DNA of 64,000 nucleotides. Source: Candidatus Omnitrophota bacterium. GTDB taxonomy: Bacteria; Omnitrophota; Gorgyraeia; Zapsychrales; Fredricksoniimonadaceae. The stretch spans positions 472 to 64,471 of the forward strand of contig JAUSEK010000012.1 of assembly GCA_030650275.1 (NCBI GenBank), read 5' to 3'. Shown piece by piece: positions 11,635 through 29,179 of this stretch. Each line of letters begins with the position of its first letter. Position 1 is the stretch's first letter. A model generated the notes under the pieces. The model worked only from the letters and a program-made list of their open reading frames with translations, had not been told where the DNA came from and made no database searches. The position numbers and the translations under genes are program-made.

Positions 11635-12552
11635 TTAAGATGAAAAAGAACCCAGAAGGCGGGTCAAATTGCCCCCAAAAACCATGCCTCTTTCGCGGGA
11701 GGACAGGAGGGTTTGGCTGATGACCCCCAGGGAATCCGTAAAGTTCTGGTTGGCGGGAAAATCACTGCCCCAAAGGATATGGGCAATATCCGTCACTTCC
11801 AAAGCTCCTGATAAAGAGGCCGGCGACTTGGAGCCGCTGGTGTCAAAATATAAATTCCTGAAATACTCTCCCGGCGCTTTGCCCAAATCCTTGACAAAAT
11901 TGCGCTTGCGCAGCATCGCATACGTGGAATCAAAACGTTCTTTGACGATGGGCAAAACCCCGCCATAGTGGGCAAAAATAAAATTCACGCCGGGATGCCT
12001 TAAAAATACGCCGGACATCATCATTTTGCCGATGCACATGGACACGTCAAAAACATATTCCAAGACCGGGCTTAACAAGGGGTCGCGCACGCGCTGTTCG
12101 CCGATGGGGTCCATGATCTGGGGATGGACGTGGATGGGAAAATGTTTGGCGCGGGCGAACGCGTACACGTCTTCAAACAGAGCATCGTCGAGATAGGTCC
12201 CCTGATAACTGGACGCGAGGGAAATGGCTTTGAGCCCCAGGTCTTCCATGCGCTTTAATTCCCGGGCGATGGCTGATGGGGCGTCCACCGGAATAATGCC
12301 GGCACCAACGAAACGGTCCGAATATTTTTTCACAAGATCGGCAATGGAAGAATTATATACGGAACACAATTTCTCCCATCCGCCCATGTTCAGGTGCGCG
12401 TCGCTGGTGGGATAGACCAGCAAAGCCCGGTCCACATGATACTCGTCCATGAGACGCAGTTGTTTGTCCGCGTCCGACCAATGCTCCTTGAAGAACGCTG
12501 TTTTCTGCGCCACGTCGGGCGGCATATAATGGCTGTGCGCGTCAATGACCAT
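11635..12552 (-). CDS. amidohydrolase_2 family protein (ACMSD/LigW-like metal-dependent aromatic-acid decarboxylase or hydrolase)
   Basis: 305-aa ORF with an N-terminal IDAHSH metal-binding motif and a TIM-barrel amidohydrolase layout. It is the last gene of the co-directional biosynthetic block. Confidence 0.8.
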   Translation of the reverse strand: MVIDAHSHYMPPDVAQKTAFFKEHWSDADKQLRLMDEYHVDRALLVYPTSDAHLNMGGWEKLCSVYNSSIADLVKKYSDRFVGAGIIPVDAPSAIARELKRMEDLGLKAISLASSYQGTYLDDALFEDVYAFARAKHFPIHVHPQIMDPIGEQRVRDPLLSPVLEYVFDVSMCIGKMMMSGVFLRHPGVNFIFAHYGGVLPIVKERFDSTYAMLRKRNFVKDLGKAPGEYFRNLYFDTSGSKSPASLSGALEVTDIAHILWGSDFPANQNFTDSLGVISQTLLSSRERGMVFGGNLTRLLGSFSS

Positions 12553-12812
12553 CAGACCATCTTACTGTCTTTGAGGATCTTGTCCGCGGCCTGCAGGGCC
12601 TTCATGAGTTCCGGCAAAAGGTGGATGTTGATGGAAACGCCTTTGGCCGTCGGGACCATTTGGTCAGAGCCCTGGGTCAAGGTCCATATGCGCACATCAA
12701 CCAGGTCATTGCCCTTGAACTCACGGATGCCCACGCGGACTTCCTGGAACTTATTTTTGGGAAACACTGAAACGGTTTTGTCCATGATGTTCCTTTCAAC
12801 CGGCCTGCTCAC
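12552..12812 (-). CDS. PC4/YdbC-like single-strand nucleic-acid-binding family protein
   Basis: 86-aa ORF; the KFQEVRVGIREFKGNDLVDVRIW...KGVSI pattern resembles the PC4-like fold. Stop overlaps the next start. Confidence 0.55.
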   Translation of the reverse strand: MSRPVERNIMDKTVSVFPKNKFQEVRVGIREFKGNDLVDVRIWTLTQGSDQMVPTAKGVSINIHLLPELMKALQAADKILKDSKMV

Positions 12813-12861
12813 CGGCTCGCAGGCGCGCTAAGCGGTCCGGCTTATTCGCCGGACCAGCGCC

Positions 12862-12972
12862 CTACTTCGCCTGCGTCTGTTGATAGTCAATGATGGGTTT
12901 GGTCCATGTCGTCAATTGATTGATGACCGCCAACTCCAAAGGACAGGCAATATTCCCTATTCCTTCGACTGC
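12862..12972 (-). pseudogene. duplicated 3' fragment of the adjacent SDR gene (36 codons, ends in the same ...PLELAVINQLTTWTKPIIDYQQTQAK-stop)
   Basis: Imperfect direct repeat of about 85 bp, 12876-12956 versus 12993-13072. The reverse-complement translation reproduces the C-terminal 29 aa of the SDR exactly. Confidence 0.55.
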
Positions 12973-12978
12973 ATAGGT

Positions 12979-13788
12979 TTATTTTGCTTGAGTCTGTTGA
13001 TAGTCAATTATTGGCTTAGTCCATGTTGTTAACTGATTAATGACTGCTAATTCAAGGGGACATGCGTTTGCTGGTACTGACAATGCAAAGCTGACCATGT
13101 CTGCCACGGCCACCGGGTCCATCAAACGGTCGCGCTGTTCCTTGGCCACGTCTTTCAAATGATCGGTCAGATCTGACGCGACGACACCGGGCAACAATGA
13201 AGTGACCTTGATATTGTGTTCGCGCATTTCCCAGAACAGGCCTTTGAGGAACGAACGCAAACCCATTTTCAGGGAACTGTAGGCCAAAAATCCGCGCGGG
13301 ATGGGGTCCACCAGCGTCGAACCGGAAACCACGCTGATGATCTGCCCGCTCTTGCGCGCCACCATGTCGGGGATGACCAGGCGGATCAGGCGCACATAGC
13401 CCAAATAATTGACATGGGCGAGCATTTCAAAATCCTCAATGGGCTGTTGGTGGAATGGATGCTGGCTGGAAACGCCGGCCACGTTGACGAGAATATCAAT
13501 TTGTTTGAAATGTGCCTTGGCCTTTTCCACCAAATTCTTAAGGTCTTCCAGTTTGGCCACGTCGGTCGGAATGCCGACGGCCTCGATGTGATATTTGCTT
13601 TTTAATTCCTGCACAGCCGCATCCAAAGGCCCCTGCGTGCGCGCGGCCAGCACCACATTGGCCCCGTGCTCGGCCAAACGCGCGGCAATGGCACGGCCGA
13701 TGCCGCGGCTTGCCCCGGTGATAAGGGCTGTCTTGCCTTTGAGATCAACCAAAACATGTGCCATACATTTCCTTTCCTGAATGGTCAT
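12979..13788 (-). CDS. short-chain dehydrogenase/reductase (putative polyketide ketoreductase)
   Basis: 269-aa ORF with an N-terminal TGASRGIGRAIA Rossmann motif and a downstream YxxxK catalytic motif. Confidence 0.85.
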   Translation of the reverse strand: MTIQERKCMAHVLVDLKGKTALITGASRGIGRAIAARLAEHGANVVLAARTQGPLDAAVQELKSKYHIEAVGIPTDVAKLEDLKNLVEKAKAHFKQIDILVNVAGVSSQHPFHQQPIEDFEMLAHVNYLGYVRLIRLVIPDMVARKSGQIISVVSGSTLVDPIPRGFLAYSSLKMGLRSFLKGLFWEMREHNIKVTSLLPGVVASDLTDHLKDVAKEQRDRLMDPVAVADMVSFALSVPANACPLELAVINQLTTWTKPIIDYQQTQAK

Positions 13789-14981
13789 TCCCCGAATACA
13801 TCAGGGATGGACTTTTGCCGCAACGGCGTTGAAGGAATGATCTTCGGAACAAAAATGATCTGGGCCAGCATCAAACAACCGATCGCGAAAAACGTCAGGC
13901 CGAAATTCATCTGGATGAAATTGCCGCTCAAATAAAACCCTAAGCCGCCGCTGAAAAACCGCACCGAAGAATTCAACGCCGCCAGTTCCGGCCGGTACAT
14001 GTCCGAAAGATCCGTCAGCACCGTGGATATACCGTTGTGGGCAATGGTCCAGCCGACGGAGATCATGGAAAGCACCAGGGCCAAAAACGCCAGCGAATAA
14101 TGGCCGTATAAAGCCATGGTGGATAATCCTAAGATCGCGATCCCTATATAGCAGGAATTAACGCGGCCATATTTATCCGTGACCACCCCGCCGATGAGCT
14201 GTCCCGCCACAGAGGCAATGGCCGTTAAAATGATCAAAGAACTGATGGTCAACTGATCGTAATTGTAGACCTTATCCAGATAAACGCCATACCATTTGCA
14301 TACGCCGTGAAAGAACAAACTCATGAAAAAAATAAAGATCAGGATGCGACGCAAACCGGCCAGACGAAAAGCATCGCCATAATTGACCTTGACCCCGGTA
14401 TTGGCCTCCATGCCTTCCTCGGGACAGAACCATAAACCGAAAACAAGTACAAAGCCCAACAGCGCCGGGACCGCGAATAGCCAATGCCAGTCGGCAAAAG
14501 CGCTTAAGACCAGCCCCAGCAAGGCGCCAAAGAACGACGAACTGAAAAACAACCCCAGGACCCGGCCGCGGATGTCTTTTTCAAATATCTTGCCCAGCGT
14601 CATGATCGCCAGCGGTGTGACGGCCGCGGCACCGATGCCCGCGATGACCCGCCCCAAGAGGATCATATTGAGCGAATCCGTCCACAGGCACATCCAGTTG
14701 CCGAAACCGCACAGCGCAACAGCCGCGATCATCAAATTTTTGATGGAGAACCGCACGGCCAGCGGCGCGTAAAAAAGCGCGCATACGCCATAGGGAATGA
14801 TATAGAACGGGATGATGCCCGCCGCATCCCCCATTGGAACATTCAAAGAGCGGCTGACCGCCGGAATGACCGCGGTCAGGGCTGAAATGTTAAATGAAAC
14901 AAGAACGTTGGTACAGCAAAAGAAAAATAAGATCCAACGTCTGCTAACGGGCGATCGATCATCGCCCCTACTTACTGACAT
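13785..14981 (-). CDS. MFS transporter
   Basis: 398-aa ORF with 12 predicted TM segments and MFS loop motifs. Overlaps its neighbours (operon). Confidence 0.8.
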   Translation of the reverse strand: MSVSRGDDRSPVSRRWILFFFCCTNVLVSFNISALTAVIPAVSRSLNVPMGDAAGIIPFYIIPYGVCALFYAPLAVRFSIKNLMIAAVALCGFGNWMCLWTDSLNMILLGRVIAGIGAAAVTPLAIMTLGKIFEKDIRGRVLGLFFSSSFFGALLGLVLSAFADWHWLFAVPALLGFVLVFGLWFCPEEGMEANTGVKVNYGDAFRLAGLRRILIFIFFMSLFFHGVCKWYGVYLDKVYNYDQLTISSLIILTAIASVAGQLIGGVVTDKYGRVNSCYIGIAILGLSTMALYGHYSLAFLALVLSMISVGWTIAHNGISTVLTDLSDMYRPELAALNSSVRFFSGGLGFYLSGNFIQMNFGLTFFAIGCLMLAQIIFVPKIIPSTPLRQKSIPDVFGE

Positions 14982-15417
14982 GGGCTTCAGATTCGATCAC
15001 TTTCTTGAATATCTGCAGGTTATCCTGCGAATGCTTGTTGATGAACCCTTCGATCTGCTCGGCGGTGAATTTGGTGAATTTGGGGTCCATTTCAAAATCC
15101 TGGATCCATTTCATGGAAATGCCGCCTTGAACTTCGGTATAGAACCACACAATTTTCATATACAAAAATGGGAACAGCGGGTCCCAACGCTGGGCATAGG
15201 CGAATTTCAGGTCCTTGTATAACCAGCGTTTGGACACCCATGACTTGCCATCCTCATCGGTCAGGCGAAAGGTGATCTCGTTGCCCTTGTGCTCCAGCAC
15301 ATCAGCGCTGGCATATTCCTTGCCGAACAATTCAGTCCAGCGTTCAATCTTGTTGGAAATATCAAAAATCAACTCGTATGGCGCATTGATGATGATTGAA
15401 TTTACTGTATGTCCCAT
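14968..15417 (-). CDS. SRPBCC superfamily protein (polyketide cyclase/aromatase-like, Polyketide_cyc2 type)
   Basis: 149-aa ORF; helix-grip fold length and pattern resemble TcmN/SnoaL-associated cyclase/dehydratase. 14-nt overlap with the MFS gene. Confidence 0.65.
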   Translation of the reverse strand: MGHTVNSIIINAPYELIFDISNKIERWTELFGKEYASADVLEHKGNEITFRLTDEDGKSWVSKRWLYKDLKFAYAQRWDPLFPFLYMKIVWFYTEVQGGISMKWIQDFEMDPKFTKFTAEQIEGFINKHSQDNLQIFKKVIESEAHVSK

Positions 15418-15439
15418 ATCTGCCCTCCCTAAATAAATA

Positions 15440-15468
15440 TTGACTAATAATCAATAAATAATTATACT
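15440..15468 (+). promoter_or_regulatory. sigma70-type promoter (TTGACT-17 nt-TATACT) driving the tRNA-like gene
   Basis: Near-consensus -35 at 15440-15445, a 17-nt spacer, -10 at 15463-15468. The RNA gene starts 13 nt downstream. Confidence 0.65.
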
Positions 15469-15481
15469 TACATCAATTAGT

Positions 15482-15555
15482 GCCCCGGTGGTGTAATGGA
15501 TCAGCATGCAGCTCTGGCGATGTCTGAGGCGCGGGTTCGAATCCCGCCTGGGGTA
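15482..15555 (+). tRNA. tRNA-like gene with aberrant D/anticodon region (isotype undetermined, possible pseudo-tRNA or tRNA-like sRNA)
   Basis: 7-bp acceptor stem (GCCCCGG/CUGGGGU), a perfect T-arm GCGGG-UUCGAAU-CCCGC and a discriminator A. Positions 8-49 do not fold into canonical D and anticodon arms. Instead they form one 7-bp bulged hairpin with a 12-nt loop GCAGCUCUGGCG. Confidence 0.5.
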
Positions 15556-15558
15556 CTA

Positions 15559-15606
15559 AAGGCCTTAAAGATCGAGCCAGAGCGATTTTTAAGGCCATCT
15601 TTTTTC
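15559..15606 (+). terminator. intrinsic terminator after the tRNA-like gene
   Basis: Stem GGCCTTAAA / TTTAAGGCC with a 16-nt loop, followed by ATCTTTTTTCTT. Confidence 0.7.
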
Positions 15607-15681
15607 TTGCAAAGAACAGTTAAAAATGATATATTTTAATTAATCGATTTTCGCCAGAGCTGTATGTTATCCAGTTTCATT

Positions 15682-15909: not shown

Positions 15910-16749
15910 CTATAAAATAGCGACTACCCTGCTCCAACCCGCTCCCGCATTCCTTACTTTAACAGGTAAACAAGACACCGTAAACCCAAACGGTTTCGGG
16001 ATGGTGCCTAAATTACCCAAACGTTCCATGTGACAATACTCGCGCTCGCGTCCGAGGAAATGGCAGGGCCAGATCTTACTCTTGTCCTTGGTGGTCAAAA
16101 ATTCCTTGAACATCAAAAAACACGGGCGGTCAAGGCCGATGGTGTCAATGCCCATCATCTTGATGCCCGCATCCAGCAAATACTCCACGGCATCGGGCAT
16201 CATGCCCACATATTTGTTCACGTAATCGTCGGTCCCCAACAACTTGTCCCCACCCGTATAAATGAGCACAATGTCCATTGGCTTTAAAATATATTTGATC
16301 TTTTTCAGCGCGGCAATGACATGGTCCTTGGTGATGGCATCGGGGAATTTCAAATGGGTGAGATCCAAAACCACGCCGGGGCCATAACACCACTCCAGCG
16401 GCACGTCCATGATCTGTTTGGCCGGCTTGCCCTCGCACATACTTCCATAATGGAACGGCGCATCCACATGAGAGCCCATGTGCACCGACGAATGCACCAC
16501 TTCCAAAGACGGCATTTCGCCGCCGGGGATCTCCTCTGCCGTAGCAACACGCTCGCCTTTGTCAAAACGCTCCTGGCCCCCGGGCTGTTTGCTCATCACC
16601 ACCCAGTTGAAATGTTCAACACCCTGCGCATGCGTGATGCGGTCGATCTTGGCATCGTGCGTTTCGACAAGTGTGTCATCTATGGGTAAACTAAGGTCTA
16701 TAATTTTCATAATGCCTGGATTCCCGACAGAAACATTCGGGAATGACAA
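15910..16749 (-). CDS. cyclase-family protein (PF04199-like, kynurenine-formamidase fold; HxGxHxDxPxH metal motif)
   Basis: 279-aa ORF with a VHMGSHVDAPFHY motif. The first 13 codons (MSFPNVSVGNPGI) are encoded by a repeat element, so the true start is probably Met14 at 16710. Confidence 0.8.
   Translation of the reverse strand: MSFPNVSVGNPGIMKIIDLSLPIDDTLVETHDAKIDRITHAQGVEHFNWVVMSKQPGGQERFDKGERVATAEEIPGGEMPSLEVVHSSVHMGSHVDAPFHYGSMCEGKPAKQIMDVPLEWCYGPGVVLDLTHLKFPDAITKDHVIAALKKIKYILKPMDIVLIYTGGDKLLGTDDYVNKYVGMMPDAVEYLLDAGIKMMGIDTIGLDRPCFLMFKEFLTTKDKSKIWPCHFLGREREYCHMERLGNLGTIPKPFGFTVSCLPVKVRNAGAGWSRVVAIL
16716..16748. repeat. REP-like palindromic element, copy A (ATTCCCGAC-N9-TCGGGAAT core)
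   Basis: CTGGATTCCCGACAGAAACATTCGGGAATGACA. Related copies at 24765-24837 and 29840-29867. Sits at the ACP/cyclase gene junction. Confidence 0.6.
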
Positions 16750-16754: not shown

Positions 16755-17039
16755 TTAATGCTCATGCCCACAGCCGCAGGAATGGCCGCCACTGGCCTGG
16801 GCCTTGGATCTTAGAATGCCGATGATCTCATTGAACGAATGCGTCTTTTTCAATTCATTGTCCTTAAGCGCGATGCCCAGTTCCTTTTTGATACCGACCG
16901 AGATCTCCACCATTTCCGTTGAGTCAATGTCCAAGGACTCGTCCAGTTTTGCGCCGGGGATGATCTCGCTGTCCTTGATATCCAGAACCTTTTTGAAGAT
17001 GGCTTTGACCTTGCTTTCGAGGTCTGTCTGGGTCTGCAT
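16755..17039 (-). CDS. acyl carrier protein (phosphopantetheine Ser in a DIDSTEMVEI motif) with a Cys/His-rich C-terminal tail
   Basis: 94-aa acidic ORF with an ACP four-helix pattern. The C-terminus is SGGHSCGCGHEH. Confidence 0.8.
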   Translation of the reverse strand: MQTQTDLESKVKAIFKKVLDIKDSEIIPGAKLDESLDIDSTEMVEISVGIKKELGIALKDNELKKTHSFNEIIGILRSKAQASGGHSCGCGHEH

Positions 17040-17060
17040 TTTTTTCTCCGTTTAATGTTT

Positions 17061-18293
17061 TTAAAGTTTCTGCAGGACTAAAACGCAGTTGATCCCGCCG
17101 CGTCCGCGGTTGATGATCAAAGCATTCTTGATAGTTTTTGCCTGCGCTTTGTTGGGGCAATAATCCAGGTCGCATTCCGGGTCCGGTGTCTGATAATTGA
17201 TGGTCGGCGGCACCATGCCGTGTTCCATGGCCAGCACCGTCGTGATGACGTCCAAAGCCCCGCAGGCGCCCAGCATATTGCCGAACACCGACTTAGGCGC
17301 GGACACCGGTACCTTCTTCGCGTAACCGTTAAAGGCCTGTTTGATGGCTTTTGTTTCGGTGATGTCGCCCAAAACTGTTGCAGCACCATCAGCGCAAATA
17401 TAATCAATGTCTTTGGGGGAAAGCCCGGCATCGTCCAGGGCTGATCTGATGGCACGGGCCAATTGTTTGGCATCCGGCGCCGGATCAATGCGGTTGACAG
17501 CATCGGTGGTGGACGCATAACCGATGATATTGGCATAGACATGGGCTTTACGCTTGATGGCCCGTGACTGCGGTTCCAGCGTCAAGACCCCGGCACCTTC
17601 GGCAATGGCCAAACCATCGCGGTTTTTGTCAAACGGCCGATACGCTTGGCGCGGGTCATCATTGCGTTTGGACAAAACCCCTGACGTGTTGCAGCACAAA
17701 AGCGCGTAGGGCGTCACCGGCGCTTCCATGCCCCCGGCCAAAATAAAATCGCATTTGTTACGGATGATGGTCCTGGCCGCGTAGCCGATGGCCATCAAAG
17801 AACTGGCCCTGTCCGCGACAATGGTCTTGGAAAAACCTTTGATGCCGTAATGAATGGATATCTGCCCCTGCGGTGCCGCGGGAAACCACGCGGAGGCCAT
17901 GAAAGGACTCACCCCTTCCCGGCCTTCCAGATACATATCGCGCAACTCGGTCTCGGCATACAGCCAACCGCCCAAGGCATTGCCCATAAAGATCCCGACG
18001 CGCTTTAAATCCTCGTCAGGCAGATTAATGCCCGCGTCATTCAGGCACATTTCAGAAGCCACCAAAGCCATATGCGAAAAAAGATCTATCTTCTTTAAAA
18101 GCCGCGATGAGACATTGCTATAAGCATCCAATTCTTTGACAGTCCCGGCAATGCGCGACGGATAAGCGCTGGCGTCGAAACGCTCGATCTTTTCAACCGC
18201 GCTCCTGCCATGGGCCACATTGGCCCAGAACACTTTTTTGTCCATCCCTGACGGGGATATGACGCCTAAACCGGTGATCGCAATGGGGTCCAT
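17061..18293 (-). CDS. ketosynthase-like chain-length-factor partner (KS-beta/CLF-like; catalytic triad replaced)
   Basis: 410-aa thiolase-fold KS homolog. The active-site Cys position reads ADRASS (Cys to Arg). Both catalytic His positions are changed (CADGAAT has Asp, FGNMLGA has Asn). 4-nt overlap with the upstream KS gene. Confidence 0.8.
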   Translation of the reverse strand: MDPIAITGLGVISPSGMDKKVFWANVAHGRSAVEKIERFDASAYPSRIAGTVKELDAYSNVSSRLLKKIDLFSHMALVASEMCLNDAGINLPDEDLKRVGIFMGNALGGWLYAETELRDMYLEGREGVSPFMASAWFPAAPQGQISIHYGIKGFSKTIVADRASSLMAIGYAARTIIRNKCDFILAGGMEAPVTPYALLCCNTSGVLSKRNDDPRQAYRPFDKNRDGLAIAEGAGVLTLEPQSRAIKRKAHVYANIIGYASTTDAVNRIDPAPDAKQLARAIRSALDDAGLSPKDIDYICADGAATVLGDITETKAIKQAFNGYAKKVPVSAPKSVFGNMLGACGALDVITTVLAMEHGMVPPTINYQTPDPECDLDYCPNKAQAKTIKNALIINRGRGGINCVLVLQKL

Positions 18294-21272: not shown

Positions 21273-22745
21273 TTACTTCGCCGCGGACACGCGCGAGTTC
21301 GCCTCCCATTTGGAAATGTTATTCATGAAATCCTTCACGCACAATTTCACCTTGATATGATAGTTGCTTTCCATGATCCGGTGGATGCGTTCCGGCTTGG
21401 AATAATATTCACGCATGCACCAGGCCCCCAAACGGCCGACCTCCTCGATGCTGAGATGATCGGTGGGGATGACCGGATGCTGGAAATCCCAGTCCTTGAG
21501 ATCGATCTTGTCCGGATCGAACCATCCTTTCTTGATCCCGTAACGCCAGTCCGGAGAATTGGGCACCGGCGTCAAATAATCCAGGGCAAAAATGTCCGAA
21601 TCGATCTCATCGGCAACGCGCAAACGTTCCTTGATCTTCGCTTCCGTGTCCTCTTTGAGGCCGATCAATACCGTCCCGACACTGCCGATATCATTTTCAC
21701 GCAAAATATCGACCGTCTTTCTGATCTGCGCGATGGTCACTCCTTTGCCGGTCTTGCTCAAGGTCATATCGTCCTCGACCTCCACACCCGTTAACGCCAA
21801 AAACAAGCCCGCTTTTTTCATCAACGGCAGGATCTCGTGCTGGGAGACCCATTGGTCGGCACGGCCCAAACACACCCAGTCGATCTTGTTGCCGCGCTTG
21901 AGTTTCTCCTCGCAGAATTCGATCATGGCGGCGGTGTCCGTATTGAACGCGTCATCCTGAAAAACAACCGTGTTGATCCCGTATTGCTTCTCTAAAATAT
22001 CCAGTTCATCAACGATGCGTTTGCCTTTCAGCCCCCGCCAGGACGTGAAATCTTTGGCGGCGGTGCGGCTGTCATAAAGCGCCCATTCATAACAAAAATG
22101 ACATTTGCCCGGACAACCGCGGGACGTCATCAATTCCGCGAACGGTTTCCAATAGGTGTGCCCGACATATTTGTCCATGGGGAACAGATCATAAGCCGGC
22201 ATGGGCAGGACGTTCAAATCAGGGATCAGATCACGGTGCGGCCCCACGACAATGGCCCCGTCTTTCTGACGGGACACCAGGCCCGGGATCTCCCGTTCAT
22301 TCCTGGGATCGCCCGCGGCCATATTATTGATCAGGTCCTCCATGGTCAATTCCGCCTCCCCGATCATGATGTAGTCAATGGTCGGGTTCAAGCGCATCTG
22401 GCGTTCGTAATCGCCGGAATACCATAACCCCCCGGCCACGGTCCTGACCTTAGGGCTAGCTTCTTTGATGATGCGAAGCCCCTCATTAAAATACCAGATG
22501 ACCGCGGCACCGCAGGTGGAATGCAGCAATTCCCCGACAAAAACAATGTCCGGCTTGCTGTTTTGAACGAATTTCAGCATCGCCTCCCAGTCCATGTCCA
22601 GCGCGCGGGAGTCGAGCACTTCCACCTGGGCTAGATTTCTTTCACGCAAATAGGCGGCCAGCTGCGCGTGCATCTGATTGGCGGCTTTGTGGTTGCCGTG
22701 TGAATCCCATGCTTTCAACGGCGGTGTCAAAAATAGAACTTTCAT
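21273..22745 (-). CDS. B12-binding radical SAM protein (class B rSAM, methyltransferase/BchE-like)
   Basis: 490-aa ORF with an N-terminal cobalamin-binding Rossmann-like domain and a CPGKCHFC (CxxxCxxC) radical-SAM cluster motif. An AGGAGA Shine-Dalgarno sequence lies upstream. Confidence 0.85.
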   Translation of the reverse strand: MKVLFLTPPLKAWDSHGNHKAANQMHAQLAAYLRERNLAQVEVLDSRALDMDWEAMLKFVQNSKPDIVFVGELLHSTCGAAVIWYFNEGLRIIKEASPKVRTVAGGLWYSGDYERQMRLNPTIDYIMIGEAELTMEDLINNMAAGDPRNEREIPGLVSRQKDGAIVVGPHRDLIPDLNVLPMPAYDLFPMDKYVGHTYWKPFAELMTSRGCPGKCHFCYEWALYDSRTAAKDFTSWRGLKGKRIVDELDILEKQYGINTVVFQDDAFNTDTAAMIEFCEEKLKRGNKIDWVCLGRADQWVSQHEILPLMKKAGLFLALTGVEVEDDMTLSKTGKGVTIAQIRKTVDILRENDIGSVGTVLIGLKEDTEAKIKERLRVADEIDSDIFALDYLTPVPNSPDWRYGIKKGWFDPDKIDLKDWDFQHPVIPTDHLSIEEVGRLGAWCMREYYSKPERIHRIMESNYHIKVKLCVKDFMNNISKWEANSRVSAAK

Positions 22746-22795: not shown

Positions 22796-24298
22796 TTAAA
22801 ACCACGACGTGACCAGCGGCTTGCCTCCCGGCGTCTGGTCAGTGGTGACTGTTTTGATCTGTGTGTATTCATACAGCCCTTCTTTGCCCAATTCCCGTCC
22901 AAAACCGCTTTGTTTATACCCGCCGAACGGCACGGCATTGTCAAAAGCGCCATAGGTATTGATCCAGACCGTGCCGCAACGTAAACGTTTGGCCACACCA
23001 TTGGCCTTGGCCAGATCCTGCGTCCACACCATGGCCGCGAGACCATACTTGGTTTCATTGGCCAGATGAACCGCCTCATCAACGGATGTAAAAGGCATCA
23101 CGCACAATACCGGGCCAAAAATTTCTTCCTGCGCGATGGTCATGTTGTTGCGCACGTCAATAAAGATCGTGGGTTCAAGATAAGCCCCTTTAGGATTTGT
23201 CCCCGCCGGAACTTTACCGCCGCACACCAATTTTGCCCCTTCTTTCTTGCCCTGTTCGATCAAACGCAAAACAGCGTCGCGATGGGTAGTATTGACCAAA
23301 GGACCGAACTCGGTCTCAAAACTGTCCGCCGGGCCTATCGTTAATGTTTGGGCGCGTTTCACCAGTTGCCCGACGAATGTCTTATAAATTTTGTCCTCCA
23401 CCAAAAGCCGCGACCCGGCCGTGCACATCTGTCCCTGATTCATAAAAATGGAAGCCAAAGTCCCGCCCACCGCCGCTTCCATATTGCAATCGGCAAAAAC
23501 GATGTTGGGAGATTTGCCGCCCAATTCCAGCGTCAATTTCTTAATGCTCTTGGCGGCCTGGGCCATCACCGCTTTTCCGGTTTCTGTTGAGCCGGTAAAA
23601 GACACCATATCCACCTGGGAATGGGAAACCAGCTCGCTGCCGGCCTGGGCACGTGAAGAACTGATGATATTTAAAACACCTTTAGGTAATCCGGCCTGGG
23701 CGATGATCTTGCCTAAAGCCATGACCGCAACACAGGCGGTCGGCGATGGTTTTAAAACAACGGTATTGCCGGCCAGTAAAGCCGGAGCGATCTTCCACGC
23801 GGCCGTGATCAAAGGATAATTCCAGGGAATAATGGCCGCCACAACACCAACAGGTTCCCGGCTGACAAGACACAGATGAGGGGACGGTATTTCTATGGTC
23901 TCGTTATTTAACGGGGTCTCGAAATTTCCAAAATATTCAAACGTATCCGCGCAGGTCGGGACATCAATGAAGGTCGCGTGCTTGATGGTCTTACCGGTTG
24001 ACCAGCATTCCAGGTCCGCTAATTCTTTGGCATTCTCCCGGATCAGTTGGGCGATGCGCAATAAAAATTTTCCCCGTTCGGCCGTGGCCATTTGCGGCCA
24101 GCGGCCGTGGTCAAAAGCCAGGCGAGCGGCGTTGACAGCGATCTCAACGTCCACGGCATCAGCGTCCGCCAAGCGCGCGAACACCTCGCCGTTGGAAGGA
24201 TTAACGCAATCAAAATATTGACCGCTCAACGAAGGCGCTACCTTGCCTTCGAGCAACAAATCAAATTTCTCTATTTTTGATCCTATTATCATATTCAT
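22796..24298 (-). CDS. NAD(P)-dependent aldehyde dehydrogenase
   Basis: 500-aa ORF with a catalytic Cys in a QGQMCTAGSR context, plus ELGGKSP and FTGSTETG motifs. Confidence 0.9.
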   Translation of the reverse strand: MNMIIGSKIEKFDLLLEGKVAPSLSGQYFDCVNPSNGEVFARLADADAVDVEIAVNAARLAFDHGRWPQMATAERGKFLLRIAQLIRENAKELADLECWSTGKTIKHATFIDVPTCADTFEYFGNFETPLNNETIEIPSPHLCLVSREPVGVVAAIIPWNYPLITAAWKIAPALLAGNTVVLKPSPTACVAVMALGKIIAQAGLPKGVLNIISSSRAQAGSELVSHSQVDMVSFTGSTETGKAVMAQAAKSIKKLTLELGGKSPNIVFADCNMEAAVGGTLASIFMNQGQMCTAGSRLLVEDKIYKTFVGQLVKRAQTLTIGPADSFETEFGPLVNTTHRDAVLRLIEQGKKEGAKLVCGGKVPAGTNPKGAYLEPTIFIDVRNNMTIAQEEIFGPVLCVMPFTSVDEAVHLANETKYGLAAMVWTQDLAKANGVAKRLRCGTVWINTYGAFDNAVPFGGYKQSGFGRELGKEGLYEYTQIKTVTTDQTPGGKPLVTSWF

Positions 24299-24376: not shown

Positions 24377-25426
24377 TTATTCCACCGGTACATTCGTCCA
24401 TAATTGAAAAATACGGCTGCAAGGCGCGTACCATTTGGAAATGCGCGCGAAATCGCCTTTTAAGAACATTTTCTTCTGCGTCGTGGCCACGAACGGGTCT
24501 ATTTGCCGGCTGAACACCGCCCGCCACACCGCTTCCGGCGCGTTGATGACAAATTCCGCGTCCGCGTCCTGCGCGACCTGCGTGATACGGCCGTTCTCAA
24601 ATGTAAACCGGTGGGCCTGCCCTGTCTCATCCAAAATGACCGCGAGGGCCATGTTCATCGCGGTCTTGTTGCCCAATTCCTGCATCTGCGCGTCGGCATT
24701 GACTAGGCGCACGATCTCTTCGATCTGTTCTTTGGAAAATAATTTGTATTTTTTATTTTTGTCACCCCCGAATGTTTCTGTCGGGGGTCCAGAAATAGAC
24801 GTGTCTGGATTCCCGACAAAAGCATTCGGGAATGACATTTTTTTATAATGAACGTCGACCAGATCCATTTTTACTTGTTCTTCCAATTCCTGAATAAGCA
24901 CAAATGCATTGAATAGATCGTCCCCCACCGCGACAACGCCGTGGTTCTTAAGCACTACGATATTGTTTATTTTCAACGCTTCCACCACTGGCGCGGGGTC
25001 AGTCACTGATGGGGTTGTTTGGGCAATGGCTTTCACTTCACCCAGATAAAATTGCGCTTCAAATGTTTTAGGCGTGAAGCGGTCGTTGGATAAAAAGAAA
25101 CCATTGGTGTAGGTTGTATGCGTATGCAAAACGCATTGGACCTTCGGCATCGCTTTGTAGATTGCCGTGTGCATCAGCCGCTCGCTGGATGCCTTACCTT
25201 TCCCGATAACCGCGCCCTTAAGGTCCATCGTGAGAATGTCTTTGTCCGTCAAATGTCCCAGACATGTTCCCGTGGCTGTTATCAAAACAGTATCGGCATC
25301 CAGGCGATGGGAAATGTTACCGTTAAAACCAAACACCAGCCCCTTGTCCCACAACAGACGTCCGGTCCGGATCATTTCTTCTTTTATTTGTTTCTCATTC
25401 ATATCAGGTATTTCTTCGGGACCCAT
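24377..25426 (-). CDS. class II aldolase/adducin-family protein (MtnB/Ald2-like) fused to a C-terminal SCP2-like domain
   Basis: 349-aa ORF. Residues 1 to about 205 are aldolase_II (GFNGNISHR, HTH motifs). Residues about 235-349 resemble an SCP2 sterol-carrier domain (FLKGDFARISKW). A 26-aa linker, MSFPNAFVGNPDTSISGPPTETFGGD, is encoded by REP-like copy B. Confidence 0.75.
   Translation of the reverse strand: MGPEEIPDMNEKQIKEEMIRTGRLLWDKGLVFGFNGNISHRLDADTVLITATGTCLGHLTDKDILTMDLKGAVIGKGKASSERLMHTAIYKAMPKVQCVLHTHTTYTNGFFLSNDRFTPKTFEAQFYLGEVKAIAQTTPSVTDPAPVVEALKINNIVVLKNHGVVAVGDDLFNAFVLIQELEEQVKMDLVDVHYKKMSFPNAFVGNPDTSISGPPTETFGGDKNKKYKLFSKEQIEEIVRLVNADAQMQELGNKTAMNMALAVILDETGQAHRFTFENGRITQVAQDADAEFVINAPEAVWRAVFSRQIDPFVATTQKKMFLKGDFARISKWYAPCSRIFQLWTNVPVE
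24765..24837. repeat. REP-like palindromic element, copy B (three consecutive hairpins) embedded in-frame in the aldolase ORF
   Basis: Hairpins CCCCCGAATGTTTCTGTCGGGGG, TCCAGAAATAGACGTGTCTGGA and ATTCCCGACAAAAGCATTCGGGAAT, followed by a T7 tract at 24838-24847. Confidence 0.6.
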
Positions 25427-25872
25427 TCCACCAAAGGCACATAACCATGAACACCTTTGGGCGCTGTTCTTTTGCCTTCAAAAGACAAAATATCCTCGGG
25501 GTTACCCAAAAACCGCGCCTTATGTTCGGCCGGTGCTAATTGAACCGGTACGTTATGGCGTTTGGCCAAAACCGCCAGGACCAACCCTCCCATATCGCAC
25601 AAAGCCCCGCTTTTATCCGCGAATTGGCAGGCCAAAACCACTTGCTTGACCAACCCCTTAAAGAACAGGAACCCGGCCATATTGTCGCAAATCACCGTCG
25701 GAACAATGCCTTTCCTGACCAGGGCCGCGCTGTTGCCTTTGCCCGCGCTAAGGTCCGGCCTACCCTCCAGAACAAAAACAGAGGCCGTCTTTGCCGGTTT
25801 AAAGGTCTTGAAAAAACCATCGGCACAAACGCCCTGTAAAAGAACAATGGATCCCGTTTTATAATCCCGCAT
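25399..25872 (-). CDS. truncated eIF-2B/MtnA-family paralog (C-terminal Rossmann-like half only)
   Basis: The ORF is open to 26025, but the probable start is the ATG at 25870-25872 (157 aa), overlapping the MtnA stop by 14 nt. Sequence parallels the MtnA C-terminal half (VICDNMAG vs VVPDNTVG; AVLAKRHNVP vs AVLAKEFGIP). Confidence 0.55.
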   Translation of the reverse strand: MRDYKTGSIVLLQGVCADGFFKTFKPAKTASVFVLEGRPDLSAGKGNSAALVRKGIVPTVICDNMAGFLFFKGLVKQVVLACQFADKSGALCDMGGLVLAVLAKRHNVPVQLAPAEHKARFLGNPEDILSFEGKRTAPKGVHGYVPLVEWVPKKYLI

Positions 25873-26824
25873 GGATGGCGATCGCTTCCGTGATATAGGT
25901 GTTGGGCACAACGTCAAACCCCGGATAAAAACCCCGCGCCTTGGGGCCAAAGACCTTTTTATTGTTAAAGACCAAAAGTTCATCGGCATCGCGCATTTCA
26001 ATGGGCATGTCATGGCCTGTGGCAACGCCTTTGGACGGCTGGGTCAAAACGATCAGCGGAATGCCGAACTCCTTGGCCAGCACCGCGATCTGGTAAGAGC
26101 CCACTTTATTGGCCACATCTCCATTGGCCGCCGAACGGTCGGAACCGATGATGATCTTGTTGACCAGCCCCTCGGCCATCAAAGCGCCGACGGTATTATC
26201 CGGGACCACGGTCACATGCGCTCCGGCTTTTTGCAGCTCCCATGCCGTCAATTTTGCGCCCTGCATGTAAGGCCGGGTTTCCGTCGCGTAAAATTTCACG
26301 CGCCTGCCTTCTTTTAAAGCGAGGAACGCGGCCATGGCCAGCTCTCCGCTGACATTGCAATGGGTCAAAATAGGATCGCCATCGGCCATATGAGCGGCGA
26401 TCCGGCGCACACGCTCAAGACGGCGATGGCGGATGCTCTCCAGAAAACCTTCCACCGTGCGTACAACGGCCTTGCAGACATCGGCATTCTCATGGGCGGC
26501 TTTGCGCGCGACACCCGTGACAATGCCCGTCACTTCCGCGAAAGGAAAGGTCGGACGGGAATTGTTCAAGGCCAGGGCAATGGCTTCTATATCTTTGACC
26601 TTTGACTTTTGGCCTTTGGCCTCCAACAAAAAAGTATTCAAAACAACCAGAAATTGTCCAAAAGCGCGGGTTTTCATGTCCCGGATCACAGCAACCGCCC
26701 CCTTAACATTACGCACAGGGATATACTTGGTCTTTAAGGGGAGCAGGGTCTCATCAAGGACATAAAGCGTATTGCCCTTGATGTGCGCCGGCCAAAATAG
26801 TGGCGATTCGAACATATTATCCAT
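25859..26824 (-). CDS. mtnA: S-methyl-5-thioribose-1-phosphate / 5-deoxyribose-1-phosphate isomerase (MtnA, eIF-2B alpha/beta/delta family)
   Basis: 321-aa ORF with eIF-2B-related family motifs, including GSDRSAANGDVANKVGSY containing the catalytic Asp region. Confidence 0.85.
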   Translation of the reverse strand: MDNMFESPLFWPAHIKGNTLYVLDETLLPLKTKYIPVRNVKGAVAVIRDMKTRAFGQFLVVLNTFLLEAKGQKSKVKDIEAIALALNNSRPTFPFAEVTGIVTGVARKAAHENADVCKAVVRTVEGFLESIRHRRLERVRRIAAHMADGDPILTHCNVSGELAMAAFLALKEGRRVKFYATETRPYMQGAKLTAWELQKAGAHVTVVPDNTVGALMAEGLVNKIIIGSDRSAANGDVANKVGSYQIAVLAKEFGIPLIVLTQPSKGVATGHDMPIEMRDADELLVFNNKKVFGPKARGFYPGFDVVPNTYITEAIAIHAGL

Positions 26825-26909
26825 GAGCGGGTCCTGTCTTCGGTTTCCCCCACCGTGCTCGTTCCTGCGCGCGGTGGGGGTCCCCCTACCGAAGCCACCC
26901 GCTGCCAGT

Positions 26910-27677
26910 TTATCTGTTCTCTTTTTGTTTAATAAGATTCAACGCAATGTTGATGAGCGCGCCTTCGGCCATGTAATAATCCGCGTTCATGAAACCCATT
27001 TCGCCCGTGATCAGATTATCGCTGACCGCCAGAATGGACACGGCCGGGATCTTATACAATTGGGCCAATGTCAAAAATACGGAACTGACCATGTCCACGG
27101 CAATGCAGTCCCGGTCAATGGCCTTGTTCACATGTTCTTTCGTTTCACGCAAAATAGCATCGGTGGACCAGACCTTGCCCTCATGGACGGCCAGCCCGGA
27201 GGCCTTGGCCGCGGCGATCAACTGGGTGTTAAGACCGGCGTCCGGCAAGGTCACGAGCGCGTCATCCACATAATACGGGGACACCCCGTCCCCGCGCACG
27301 CAACCCGTGGCCACGATCAGATCGCCGACCTTGATCGCGCTGGACAAAGCCCCGCAGCTGCCGATGCGGATCAGACAGCCCGTTTGACCGTTGCATAAGA
27401 TCTCCGTCGTGATCGCGGTATCCGCGGCAAAACGGCCGCCGTTGATGGTGGTCACCTTGACGTCTTCATAAGTCCCCGTGAACATGGTGTATTCCATGAA
27501 CGCGAATTTCTTGACGGGATTTTTCAATTTTTTCATGACGCTTTCCATGCGCTCGCGGGGGCCCGGCACAATGGCGTATTTGCCGAAATCCATCGGCAAC
27601 AACTGCACCATTCCCATCAGGTCCTTGCCGGCCAAATGAATATCCCGGGTCATTCTTTCTTTTTCTACGATGGGCAT
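26910..27677 (-). CDS. nucleoside phosphorylase, PNP_UDP_1 family (putative MTA/5'-deoxyadenosine phosphorylase)
   Basis: 255-aa ORF with the IRIGSCGAL...VGDLIVATGCVR core typical of DeoD/Udp/MtnN-fold enzymes. Confidence 0.75.
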   Translation of the reverse strand: MPIVEKERMTRDIHLAGKDLMGMVQLLPMDFGKYAIVPGPRERMESVMKKLKNPVKKFAFMEYTMFTGTYEDVKVTTINGGRFAADTAITTEILCNGQTGCLIRIGSCGALSSAIKVGDLIVATGCVRGDGVSPYYVDDALVTLPDAGLNTQLIAAAKASGLAVHEGKVWSTDAILRETKEHVNKAIDRDCIAVDMVSSVFLTLAQLYKIPAVSILAVSDNLITGEMGFMNADYYMAEGALINIALNLIKQKENR

Positions 27678-29179
27678 ACGATCTCCTGTTTTAACAATTC
27701 CTTGTCGATCTTTCCTGTCCTGTTTTTAGGCAGGCCTTCTCTTATTTCAACGGTCTGCGGCACCTTGAAATTCGCCAAATGTTCACGGGCAAAATGACGC
27801 ACGTCCTGCGGTGTCAATGCGGCACCGGCTTTAAGCACCACAAAGGCCTTGAGCGCTTCGCCTTTGAGGGCATCCGATATTCCTATGACAGCCGCCTCCA
27901 GAATTCCCTCGTGCTTGCATAGGGCGCTTTCCACTTCCGGCGCGTAGACGATCTGCCCGGCCACCTTGATCATTTCTTTCTTGCGCCCGACGATATACAA
28001 AAATCCGTCCGTATCAAAACGCCCCAGATCGCCGGTATGGAACCACCCGTTGCGTTTGGCTAAAGCCGTGCTTTCAGGGTCTTTGTAATATTCCTGCATC
28101 ACCACCCAGCCGCGGATGACGATCTCGCCGATATCACCGTCGTGCAGGATATTATCTTCATCATCCACGATCCGGATCTCACAATTCGGCGCCGGCTTGC
28201 CGACGCTTTCGATCTTCGGGTCATTCAAAGGCGTGACCGTATTGGGCGGGCATGTCTCGGTCATGCCCCAGCCGTTGAGGAGCTTGGCGTTGGGGCAATA
28301 CTTATGGAAACGTTCCAAAATATCCGGCGAAGAGGGCGCCCCAAAAACCACCACCCAGCGCAGGGATGAAAGGTCAAATTGTTCAATATTTTTTAAGGTC
28401 AGCAGGGCCGTGTACATAGGCGGGACAATGTGAAAACACGTGACCTTGTGCCGGGCCACGTTCCTTAAAAATTCCAGCGGCTGGAAACGGTCCATCAACA
28501 CCAGGGTGATGCCGAACAGGATGCAATTCTGGATATAAATGAAACCGCCGATGTGACTTAAAGGAAGGGCGCACAATTTCACGTCGCGCTCGTTTAAGTC
28601 CACGAAATGTTTCATCGCTTCCGGCGACCCGTCCAGATGGCGGTAATTCAACAAAATGCCTTTAGGATTGCCGGTCGTTCCGGACGTGTACATGATCAGC
28701 GCCGGGTCCCCTTCCTTGACTTCGGCCGGCGGCGTGCTCCCGCTACCTAAAAGCGAGGCCCACGGCTGTTCCCACGCCAGTCCGAGCGGCTGTCCCACAA
28801 CAATAACGGTCTTAAGCAACGGCAGGGCCGCTTTTAAGACCTGAATGTCCACATCCGGCCTGTATAAAGCGATCAAAACTTCGGTCTCCGAATGCCCCAA
28901 ACAGGAGACCAATTCCTCTGTTTTGAGCATATGGTCCAGGGGCACGACCGTGGCCCCCAGATAAAACAAGGACAGATACCCGTAAACATACTCCGGGCAA
29001 TTGGGAAGATAAATGGCGACTTTAGAGGACTTGCGCACACCGGCACAGGACAGCCCTTTGGCCAATTGAAAAACCATGGCCTTAAGGTCATTAAAAGAAA
29101 CCGGCTGGTCCTTAAAGATCAGGGCCGGCTTTGTCCCAAAACGATTTGCTGAAGATTGTAAGATATTGGTAATATTCAT
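27665..29179 (-). CDS. AMP-dependent synthetase/ligase (acyl- or aryl-CoA ligase, ANL superfamily)
   Basis: 504-aa ORF with a YTSGTTGNPKG adenylation motif, a GWGMTE motif and a C-terminal Lys motif. First gene of the co-directional block. Confidence 0.85.
   Translation of the reverse strand: MNITNILQSSANRFGTKPALIFKDQPVSFNDLKAMVFQLAKGLSCAGVRKSSKVAIYLPNCPEYVYGYLSLFYLGATVVPLDHMLKTEELVSCLGHSETEVLIALYRPDVDIQVLKAALPLLKTVIVVGQPLGLAWEQPWASLLGSGSTPPAEVKEGDPALIMYTSGTTGNPKGILLNYRHLDGSPEAMKHFVDLNERDVKLCALPLSHIGGFIYIQNCILFGITLVLMDRFQPLEFLRNVARHKVTCFHIVPPMYTALLTLKNIEQFDLSSLRWVVVFGAPSSPDILERFHKYCPNAKLLNGWGMTETCPPNTVTPLNDPKIESVGKPAPNCEIRIVDDEDNILHDGDIGEIVIRGWVVMQEYYKDPESTALAKRNGWFHTGDLGRFDTDGFLYIVGRKKEMIKVAGQIVYAPEVESALCKHEGILEAAVIGISDALKGEALKAFVVLKAGAALTPQDVRHFAREHLANFKVPQTVEIREGLPKNRTGKIDKELLKQEIVCPS

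Follow-up and report, generated by a model that had tools for sequence, protein, structure and literature searches.

How would a bacterium of the uncultivated phylum Omnitrophota prime a polyketide synthase (PKS) of type II, and what business would enzymes resembling those of nucleoside salvage have in the same operon? The question is raised by a gene cluster at positions 11635-29179 of a 64,000-nt stretch of contig JAUSEK010000012.1 (the window, to whose positions coordinates refer throughout). The initial annotation had described 19 co-directional genes in this span; all 19 open reading frames (ORFs) were found there on the - strand, their coordinates were re-verified in the window, and their Pfam families agree with those then listed. 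In this study, sequence comparison confirmed that the core of the locus is a ketosynthase (KS)/chain-length factor (CLF) pair of predicted type II PKS descent and not a FabF, and, judged by its conservation, the locus is a vertically conserved operon and not a sporadic acquisition. With confidence falling slightly short of even, we further propose that it is a PadR-headed, vertically conserved cluster encoding an 'ancestral' type II PKS, in which a nucleoside module, an aldehyde dehydrogenase (ALDH) and an adenylate-forming (ANL) ligase would make and load the starter acid.

The polyketide synthase core

The two ketosynthase-type proteins differ at their active sites. Translation and alignment place an intact Cys174/His314/His351 triad in the KS-alpha, whereas its partner, the gene of which overlaps the KS gene by one base (18293), has Arg/Asp/Asn at the corresponding columns, as do 6/6 orthologues examined. 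The Arg takes the place of a Gln that is found in canonical CLFs and has been proposed to prime synthesis by decarboxylating malonyl-ACP (ACP, acyl carrier protein). Together with an ACP whose serine lies in an LDIDS motif, this upholds the minimal PKS originally called, namely an intact KS, a dead-triad CLF and an ACP.

Compared with PDB sequences, the KS scored 386 bits to act KS, 362 to AntD and 356 to FabF, a slight margin over FabF. A search of 1.84 billion representative proteins returned best matches at 45-51% identity, of which the named ones were type II PKS KS-alpha and not FabF: metagenomic proteins labelled 'minimal PKS ketosynthase (KS alpha)', the KS-alpha of Laceyella/Thermoactinomyces and a Streptomyces cluster including S. 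glaucescens TcmK. We then built a neighbour-joining (NJ) tree of 161 KS domains with 100 bootstraps, comprising KS search hits, Omnitrophota orthologues, flavobacterial FabFs, a second Omnitrophota dead-KS family and Streptomyces KS/CLF pairs. Omnitrophota KS-alpha grouped with Streptomyces/Laceyella KS-alpha, without FabF or CLFs, in 93/100 bootstraps, and the dead partner grouped with Streptomyces CLFs in 97/100; one of these CLF anchors was validated by its best PDB match, act CLF (332 bits). These groupings suggest that the pair shares the canonical type II PKS KS/CLF duplication, and both proteins fall outside FabF, as the initial annotation's preference for a polyketide over a fatty-acid locus would have it. 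An origin of the CLF as a recent independent copy of the local KS or FabF, recovered in 1/100 bootstraps, was rejected.

Within the cluster (11635-31760) we found neither a ketosynthase III (KSIII) of FabH type nor an acyltransferase. The housekeeping FabH lies at 8-994, ~10 kb from the cluster, and the remainder of the window is likewise housekeeping (RecG, RsmD, CoaD, YceD, PlsX and FabH left of the ribosomal RNA (rRNA) operon). The PKS would depend on FabD, whose gene probably lies a short way beyond the window's edge. Since the primary fatty-acid synthesis (FAS) genes lie elsewhere than in the cluster, the KS pair would not be the cell's FabF. At 8-3084 (-), 3-6 kb past the rRNA operon, the window holds the start of a housekeeping lipid cluster (YceD, PlsX, FabH) together with CoaD.

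Could the pair nevertheless serve a fatty-acid-type or ladderane-type lipid locus, as a FabF heterodimer working with a radical S-adenosylmethionine (SAM) enzyme (rSAM)? In anammox bacteria, members of the same superphylum, ladderane clusters combine a KS/dead-KS pair (the FabF2/FabF-mut heterodimer) with B12-rSAM enzymes (preprint 10.64898/2026.05.19.726425), and the CLF described here scores FabF above act CLF. On the other side stand the tree support for KS-alpha and CLF (93% and 97%), the position of housekeeping plsX and fabH elsewhere in the window, and the cluster's own content, which lacks a dehydratase and an enoyl reductase and includes a PF04199 cyclase, an SRPBCC cyclase candidate and a decarboxylase of aromatic-acid type. 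Further, the rSAM reached 76.8 bits on the ladderane model TIGR04072 (cutoff 360), and the KS scored 257 bits to 9s5h_B, a KS heterodimer entry which we take to be the anammox pair, as against 386 for act KS and 356 for FabF. A lipid locus therefore seems to us scarcely credible. An aryl polyene or highly reducing type II PKS was also rejected: the Iga KS (6kxd) scored 217 bits, far under act KS and FabF, and no dehydratase is present in the cluster.

Two side observations concern these protein families. The ACP (16755-17039, -) has a Cys/His-rich C-terminal tail, SGGHSCGCGHEH, and the ACP called in two orthologous loci (L001 and L002) is 85 aa long, nine residues shorter than that of the window. 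The second Omnitrophota dead-KS family, in which Phe/Asn/Glu replaces the triad (L045, L055, L058, L067, L070, L072-L075), twice co-occurs in one metagenome-assembled genome (MAG) with the cluster studied here (L017 with L070, L030 with L072) and groups in the tree with C-terminal halves taken from KS-KS fusion proteins; it is a separate KS/CLF-like system.

Gene content of the cluster

Adjoining genes of the 19-gene array mostly overlap or sit <90 nt apart, and those from the ANL ligase through the PF04199 cyclase abut or overlap on a single strand. Numbered from the operon's first gene, they are:

27665-29179 (-): gene 1, acid ligase of the ANL (adenylate-forming) type, opening the operon (AMP-binding, 299 bits, and AMP-binding_C)
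26910-27677 (-): gene 2, nucleoside phosphorylase of the hexameric NP-I class (PNP_UDP_1, 107 bits)
25859-26824 (-): gene 3, MtnA-like (5-deoxy/5-methylthio)ribose-1-phosphate isomerase (IF-2B, 159 bits)
25399-25872 (-): gene 4, half-size IF-2B paralogue of 157 aa (IF-2B profile positions 128-267)
24377-25426 (-): gene 5, class II aldolase with a C-terminal SCP2 domain (Aldolase_II, 140 bits; SCP2, 22.8 bits)
22796-24298 (-): gene 6, non-acylating ALDH (Aldedh, 583 bits)
21273-22745 (-): gene 7, rSAM with a B12-binding domain, BchE/HpnJ-like (B12-binding and Radical_SAM)
20999-21268 (-): gene 8, 89-aa four-helix protein, weakly PCP_red/DUF2621-like (Pfam E~0.003, below cutoffs)
19986-21002 (-): gene 9, NAD(P)H oxidoreductase of the ketopantoate reductase (KPR; ApbA/PanE) family (ApbA, 113 bits, and ApbA_C)
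19561-19989 (-): gene 10, NTF2-like protein (DUF4440/CaMKII_AD in Pfam), accessory
18293-19561 (-): gene 11, KS-alpha with intact Cys-His-His triad (Pfam, translation, alignment)
17061-18293 (-): gene 12, CLF-type partner, triad replaced by Arg/Asp/Asn (translation, alignment)
16755-17039 (-): gene 13, ACP (PP-binding, PF00550, 28.4 bits)
15910-16749 (-): gene 14, PF04199 'cyclase' of kynurenine-formamidase fold (100.5 bits)
14968-15417 (-): gene 15, following a 493-nt gap, single-domain SRPBCC protein, candidate TcmN-type aromatase/cyclase (sub-cutoff Pfam and homology)
13785-14981 (-): gene 16, MFS transporter (MFS_1, 120 bits)
12979-13788 (-): gene 17, candidate ketoreductase of the short-chain dehydrogenase/reductase (SDR) family (adh_short, 174 bits; KR, 50 bits)
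12552-12812 (-): gene 18, PC4-like small protein with a single-stranded-DNA-binding fold (PF02229, 44.7 bits)
11635-12552 (-): gene 19, Amidohydro_2 protein of the non-oxidative aromatic-acid decarboxylase group (PF04909, 92 bits)

The tailoring and export set named earlier (SDR, KPR-like reductase, Amidohydro_2, MFS and ANL) is supported by Pfam, as are the families of the additional modules (B12-rSAM, ALDH and 5'-deoxynucleoside module). The call of three cyclases fared less evenly. The PF04199 protein stands: it clears its Pfam threshold with ease, its metal motif, HMGSHVDAPFH (HxGxHxDxPxH), is intact, its gene is among the operon's most conserved (69-93% among Omnitrophota loci), and it is 42% identical to PF04199 genes in two type II PKS clusters, that of Laceyella sacchari (L082) and the metagenomic L081. 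The SRPBCC protein is kept by homology, as a candidate cyclase. Its Pfam scores are sub-cutoff for Polyketide_cyc (20.2 bits; gathering score 23.4) and cyc2 (19.2 bits); SRPBCC proteins that do match Polyketide_cyc / Polyketide_cyc2, in L080, a further metagenomic cluster, and in L082, share 43% and 39% identity with it. The supposed SnoaL-like cyclase is better described as NTF2-like, matching CaMKII_AD and DUF4440, with SnoaL_3 at E=0.0097, under cutoff. Its gene is missing from about half of the orthologous clusters and is confined to, without filling, a sub-clade with KS identity of at least ~81%; in the one locus compared (L001), the small-protein and ApbA genes flank a 154-aa gene unrelated to it. 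Absence from half of the clusters and the unrelated L001 counterpart rule it out as a core cyclase.

Among the reductases, the SDR is FabG-like yet under every NCBIfam cutoff, and the ApbA-family enzyme exceeds the cutoff of its subfamily TIGR00745 (153.6 bits; cutoff 141). The Amidohydro_2 protein finds its best PDB matches in the 5-carboxyvanillate decarboxylase LigW (83 bits), ACMSD and gamma-resorcylate decarboxylase, and is 34% identical to its homologue in L080. The PC4-like gene, which is not an enzyme and to that extent departs from the single biosynthetic set first described, is kept at the same position in many loci.

The rSAM has its best PDB match in AprD4 and scores below NCBIfam cutoffs for BchE (179 bits; cutoff 481) and HpnJ (133 bits). 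Its gene is cleanly missing between the ALDH and small-protein genes in L010, L011, L022, L110 and L113, which argues that it is accessory; a Pfam scan of the cluster ORFs found no further rSAM in the window's cluster. In the most divergent orthologous cluster, L026, a second B12 radical SAM copy (16792-18366 of that locus, 45% identical) follows the Amidohydro_2 gene. The neighbouring 89-aa protein, ~40% of whose homologues among the matches listed carry PF11084, was modelled by AF2 with a pLDDT of 86; Foldseek returned nothing significant, the best being 2l09 and the PCP_red domain 2kru. An obligate partnership with the rSAM is ruled out, as the protein is retained where the rSAM gene is missing.

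Conservation across Omnitrophota

The host lineage, suspected earlier to be PVC- or Omnitrophota-like, is borne out by the KS, which is 100% identical to a 422-aa protein deposited at NCBI as 'MAG: Candidatus Omnitrophota bacterium'. Beyond this match come >100 protein clusters at 77-92% identity, nearly all of the named ones from Omnitrophota/Omnitrophica. Homologue lists for the KS and the 89-aa protein were filled by Omnitrophota orthologues, and distant contexts were not visible in them.

The whole operon is syntenic in >60 Omnitrophota loci. A CLF-seeded scan of one genome per GTDB species recovered 28 orthologous loci at 62-95% identity, the next matches (at most 38%) being FabF, and all 28 have the same gene order as far as their contigs reach. 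The most divergent loci (L025 and L026; KS 70%, CLF 63%) still share it, and the KS is 70-97% identical across species. An independent metagenome scan, seeded with the aldolase-SCP2 alignment alone, yielded 225 relatives, 80 of which were kept: a KS is present in 28/29 loci with at least 7 kb of downstream sequence, an ANL gene in 35/35 with at least 5.2 kb upstream, and the SCP2-fused aldolase was seen in this cluster only. In one locus, L022, the downstream unit has been swapped for other genes, leaving the stretch from ANL to cyclase intact and sparing the junction between module and PKS.

Nucleoside module and proposed starter route

To discern how the PKS might be supplied, we considered the enzymes encoded ahead of it. 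The phosphorylase matches uridine phosphorylase, Sulfolobus 5'-methylthioadenosine (MTA) phosphorylase 1jds (full length) and DeoD in the PDB, is below all NCBIfam cutoffs and weakly matches HpnG. The MtnA-like isomerase scored 195-206 bits on NCBIfam MtnA models (cutoffs 271-279) and, as read in its translation, retains MtnA's Cys (THCN) and Asp (GSDR..NGD) motifs. Its half-size paralogue, with an ATG start at 25872, has lost the catalytic Asp motif and is kept as a 150-190 aa gene in every orthologous locus covering the position, so that a frameshifted MtnA is ruled out; to go by the sequence, it is a probable non-catalytic partner. Across 15 orthologues of the aldolase there is no variation at the FucA-type phosphate-binding residues (GN.S, SSE) or at the Zn ligands (HTH, H162), and the SCP2 domain is detected in 14/15 orthologues (best E 2.5e-8); the aldolase's PDB neighbours are aq_1979, FucA and 6btd, and it is below all NCBIfam cutoffs. 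The ALDH carries the ELGGKSP Glu and QMCTAG Cys, as in hydrolytic, non-acylating ALDHs, its best NCBIfam models (BADH, phenylacetaldehyde dehydrogenase, aminobutyraldehyde dehydrogenase) all being sub-cutoff. By their residues, the MtnA-like isomerase, the aldolase and the ALDH look active. The ANL ligase is FadD/4CL-like, with PRK06187 as best NCBIfam model (435 bits, sub-cutoff) and FadD-type ligases and 4CL as best PDB matches; it shares just 29% identity with the AntG-like ligase in the Laceyella cluster. The window ORFs that were scanned include no SAM-dependent halogenase/fluorinase or other enzyme expected to make a special 5'-substituted adenosine.

In the starter route that we tentatively favour, the phosphorylase would cleave a 5'-substituted 5'-deoxynucleoside, be it MTA, 5'-deoxyadenosine (5'-dAdo) or a more hydrophobic 5' adduct, and the resulting sugar 1-phosphate would be isomerised by the MtnA-like enzyme together with its half-size, degenerate partner. 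The SCP2-fused class II aldolase would split the isomerised sugar phosphate into dihydroxyacetone phosphate (DHAP) and an aldehyde, X-CH2-CHO, which the non-acylating ALDH would convert to the acid X-CH2-COOH, and the ANL ligase would adenylate this acid and load it onto the ACP (or coenzyme A, CoA) as starter. KS/CLF would extend the starter with malonyl-ACP from the housekeeping FAS; ketoreductase, aromatase and cyclase would shape the chain into a small system of aromatic rings; decarboxylase, KPR-like reductase and, where present, the BchE-like rSAM would provide O2-independent tailoring; and the MFS protein would export the product. We propose an ANL-loaded starter acid from the module because the CLF has Arg for Gln and the cluster offers no KSIII or acyltransferase. 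Further, a non-acylating ALDH followed by an ATP-consuming ligase would be uneconomical for acetyl-CoA, which points to a dedicated acid.

A simpler use of the module would be to remove 5'-dAdo, the inhibitory by-product of the cluster's own rSAM. The rSAM gene comes directly after the module, and 5'-dAdo, which is reported to inhibit rSAM enzymes, is a substrate of the DHAP shunt (PMC10986504). Five loci, however, keep the whole module without the rSAM, arguing that the module is not merely for clearance of that enzyme's 5'-dAdo, and related clusters with rSAM genes (L080, L081) have no such module; we consider clearance as sole function very improbable. Tailoring is a further option: an rSAM would add a 5'-deoxyadenosyl radical to a hydrophobic intermediate, on the model of HpnH (adenosylhopane) and MqnE (aminofutalosine), and phosphorylase, isomerase and SCP2-aldolase would trim the adduct to a -CH2-CHO stub that is then oxidised and activated for ring closure or coupling. 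An SCP2 domain alongside intact phosphate-binding residues does suggest a phosphorylated substrate with a hydrophobic tail, and the phosphorylase weakly matches HpnG as the rSAM matches HpnJ. But the cluster's rSAM has a B12 domain and is BchE-like, not of HpnH or MqnE type, it is missing in the same five module-bearing loci, and the window's cluster holds no second rSAM, which leaves tailoring improbable.

Two unrelated functions might also lie in one collinear region, namely ordinary DHAP-shunt-type salvage or catabolism of 5'-deoxynucleosides, running on through ALDH and ligase to an acyl-CoA, and an otherwise-primed Ant/Den-like PKS, the ANL ligase either being part of the salvage route or serving the PKS as AntG does. 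The synteny far exceeds a plausible functional unit, related type II PKS clusters work without the module, and the phosphorylase-isomerase-aldolase triad is a known stand-alone pathway. Yet module and PKS genes form a single, tightly packed operon headed by one PadR gene, loci with the SCP2-aldolase carry a KS in 28/29 informative cases, and the L022 break spares the junction; moreover, a non-acylating ALDH with a FadD/4CL-like ligase would be odd for acetaldehyde salvage, and the CLF without Gln has no other priming enzyme in the cluster. We regard this reading as the main rival, possible if on the unlikely side.

Several observations weigh against the proposed starter route and its type II PKS. 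With regard to the PKS, the CLF scored higher to FabF than to act CLF among PDB sequences (326 against 243 bits), and the tree is an NJ tree with KS-seeded sampling, biased towards KS-alpha-like hits; the need for the CLF Gln in priming is debated in the field. As for the module, phosphorylase, MtnA-like isomerase, aldolase, ALDH and ANL ligase are all under NCBIfam curated cutoffs, such that they may act on other substrates than the DHAP-shunt enzymes do, and small substrates such as 5'-dAdo or MTA do not account for the SCP2 fusion. The module was seen in no related cluster outside Omnitrophota whose context was viewed. Lastly, synteny extends upstream in most loci, where an epimerase, a coiled-coil protein, orf139 and PadR precede ANL, and downstream, where the 16S gene follows the Amidohydro_2 gene also in L001 (positions 20542-20818 of that locus), L006 and L008; because it thus reaches unrelated neighbours on both the epimerase and the rRNA side, collinearity alone is weak evidence for coupling of module and PKS. 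Stronger arguments for coupling come from how tightly the operon is packed, from its having one PadR gene at the head, and from the cluster-specific SCP2 fusion, the position of the L022 break and the enzymology.

Boundaries of the cluster

The following features lie at the edges of the array or interrupt it:

31248-31760 (-): PadR-family regulator (PF03551, 52 bits)
29912-31041, within 29280-31041 (-): insertion, IS3-family element with two ORFs (Pfam rve / HTH_Tnp_1)
29497-29778 (-): insertion, BrnT toxin (Pfam BrnT_toxin)
29280-29516 (-): insertion, CopG-like antitoxin (Pfam CopG_antitoxin)
15482-15556 (+): tRNA-like gene in the gap between genes 14 and 15 (Rfam tRNA, 46 bits)
6251-11467 (-): rRNA operon 16S-23S-5S, directly downstream of gene 19

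Of the bounds first given, the rRNA operon downstream holds. The BrnTA genes and IS3 element do adjoin the ANL gene as described, but they are an insertion inside the cluster and not part of the pathway: the BrnT, CopG-like antitoxin and IS3 genes sit between PadR and ANL in the window and are absent there in most orthologous loci. The PadR-ANL gap is a recurrent insertion site, with other, unrelated inserts of 4.5-5 kb in L095, L101, L104 and L122. A PadR homologue lies upstream of ANL, mostly directly adjacent, in L001 and in 26/34 metagenomic loci, and PadR is the probable local regulator of the operon and its true upstream boundary.

The array is co-directional as first reported but probably comprises two transcription units, as suggested by the tRNA-like gene on the opposite strand, which has a promoter-like site (15440-15468, TTGACT-17-TATACT) and two strong terminator hairpins downstream. 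ARAGORN reads this gene with an 8-nt anticodon loop and a 4-base anticodon, GGCG, and Infernal with anticodon GGC, the anticodon stem then having a bulged U. The gene lacks a G3:U70 pair and is absent in seven other orthologous loci examined.

At the downstream end, 167 nt (11468-11634) separate gene 19 from the 16S gene on the same strand, and this adjacency of cluster and rRNA is kept in species with KS only 77% identical. Perfect TTGACA hexamers occur twice in the gap and may mark tandem rRNA promoters; a consensus scan called no promoter there. Given these hexamers and a terminator-like hairpin at the end of the last cluster gene, co-transcription of the cluster with the rRNA is unlikely.

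Other features of the window

Elsewhere, 50096-58442 (-) holds a two-partner secretion pair, a 2161-aa TpsA-like protein (TPS domain and PATR repeats) with a ShlB/FhaC-type transporter. At its right end (60000-64000) the window is poor in GC (38-42%); a TIR-domain protein (63032-63868) is encoded there along with a protein of Schlafen AlbA_2/HATPase_c_4 type (61535-62908), and the two are a possible defence island.

Significance

Omnitrophica KS-CLF pairs have been listed, uncharacterised, as one of 14 phyla in a 2023 bulk CLF catalogue (PMC10132072). Beyond it we found no literature in which polyketide clusters are connected with Omnitrophota, the DHAP shunt or 5-deoxyribose, and no publication on this cluster, its conservation, or DHAP-shunt-type genes joined to a polyketide synthase. 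To judge from the genome comparisons, new here are the synteny over >60 loci, the confinement of the SCP2-aldolase to the cluster, the loss of the rSAM in five loci that keep the module, and the membership of PadR.

If the proposed reading holds, the making of aromatic polyketides by type II synthases would count among the conserved traits that an uncultivated phylum inherits vertically. It would offer a slowly evolving KS/CLF pair for studying the origin of the CLF from FabF, the CLF being still FabF-like with Arg at the Gln site, as well as a testable new way to PKS starter units from SAM by-products and a source of O2-independent tailoring enzymes (BchE-like rSAM, non-oxidative decarboxylase, SCP2-fused aldolase). 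Were module and PKS unrelated, the locus would be a useful but ordinary genome-mining lead. We may even be dealing with an undescribed route that takes a SAM-derived 5'-deoxynucleoside (MTA, 5'-dAdo or a hydrophobic adenosyl adduct) via phosphorylase, MtnA-like heteromer, SCP2-tethered aldolase, ALDH and ANL loader to a starter acid for a deep-branching type II PKS whose CLF is unable to self-prime, leading to an O2-independent aromatic product with a core physiological role, as a redox-active or membrane compound and not an occasional antibiotic; taken as a whole, this is a possibility about which we are doubtful. The core role is suggested by vertical inheritance of the operon under strong constraint (KS 70-97% across species).

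Comparison with known systems

The anammox ladderane heterodimer and the present locus have in common a KS/dead-KS pair, in an anaerobic member of PVC, accompanied by radical SAM genes. They differ in that KS similarity to the ladderane pair is lower than to FabF or act KS, and in the cyclases and decarboxylase present here.

The logic of the proposed starter route has precedents in the fluoroacetate pathway of Streptomyces cattleya and in the chloroethylmalonyl-CoA supply of salinosporamide, both of which take a 5'-modified 5'-deoxyadenosine to an acyl unit via a nucleoside phosphorylase; the fluoroacetate route uses phosphorylase, isomerase, class II aldolase and aldehyde dehydrogenase. The likeness is by analogy only, with no SAM-dependent halogenase in the scanned window ORFs.

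A further comparison is with the DHAP shunt, in which phosphorylase, MtnA isomerase and class II aldolase convert MTA or 5'-dAdo to DHAP and methylthioacetaldehyde or acetaldehyde (PMC10986504). The module has the same three families as the shunt (MtnP, or MtnN with MtnK; MtnA; Ald2), in the same order and with catalytic residues intact. It differs in a phosphorylase that is DeoD/Udp/SsMTAP-like and not MtnP, an extra degenerate half-MtnA, the SCP2 fusion of its aldolase, and members that are all under NCBIfam equivalog cutoffs. Unlike the shunt, it continues to a non-acylating ALDH, is headed by a FadD/4CL-like ligase and is embedded in a PKS operon.

For the PKS itself, the initial annotation had seen a gene set of actinobacterial type; the type II PKS assignment stands, and the nearest relatives are instead non-actinomycete 'ancestral' clusters. 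With these (Photorhabdus ant, which makes AQ-256, Dendrosporobacter den, which makes dendrubins, and L080-L082) the Omnitrophota cluster shares KS-alpha/CLF/ACP, a PF04199-type cyclase, an SRPBCC (TcmN-type) cyclase candidate, SDR, ANL and MFS. Identities to L080-L082 are 44-48% for KS, 38-44% for CLF, 42% for PF04199 and 39-43% for SRPBCC. L080 contains KS/CLF, SRPBCC, a small PCP_red protein, SDR, Amidohydro_2 and a B12-rSAM; L081 contains SDR, PF04199, rSAM, SRPBCC, KS/CLF/ACP, ANL, a didomain cyclase and MFS; and L082 contains KS/CLF/ACP, phosphopantetheinyl transferase (PPTase), ANL, PF04199, SRPBCC and a chorismate-binding enzyme. OxyN is presumably a PF04199 member; we found no paper tying OxyN or ZhuJ to that family. 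The gene content of the Omnitrophota cluster and L080-L082 matches KS-CLF-ACP-TcmN-OxyN and thus suggests the ancestral non-actinomycete type, an architecture discussed as such for den, ant and pcy (PMC7693217). Within ant, the Photorhabdus ANL ligase AntG has been suggested to be an acyl-ACP synthetase loading the ACP (PMC6638757). Compared with clusters of ant/den/Laceyella type, the Omnitrophota cluster lacks a PPTase and an AntI-type hydrolase, its CLF has Arg at the Gln/Cys position, and it is kept across many species, lying beside the rRNA operon in the four loci checked.

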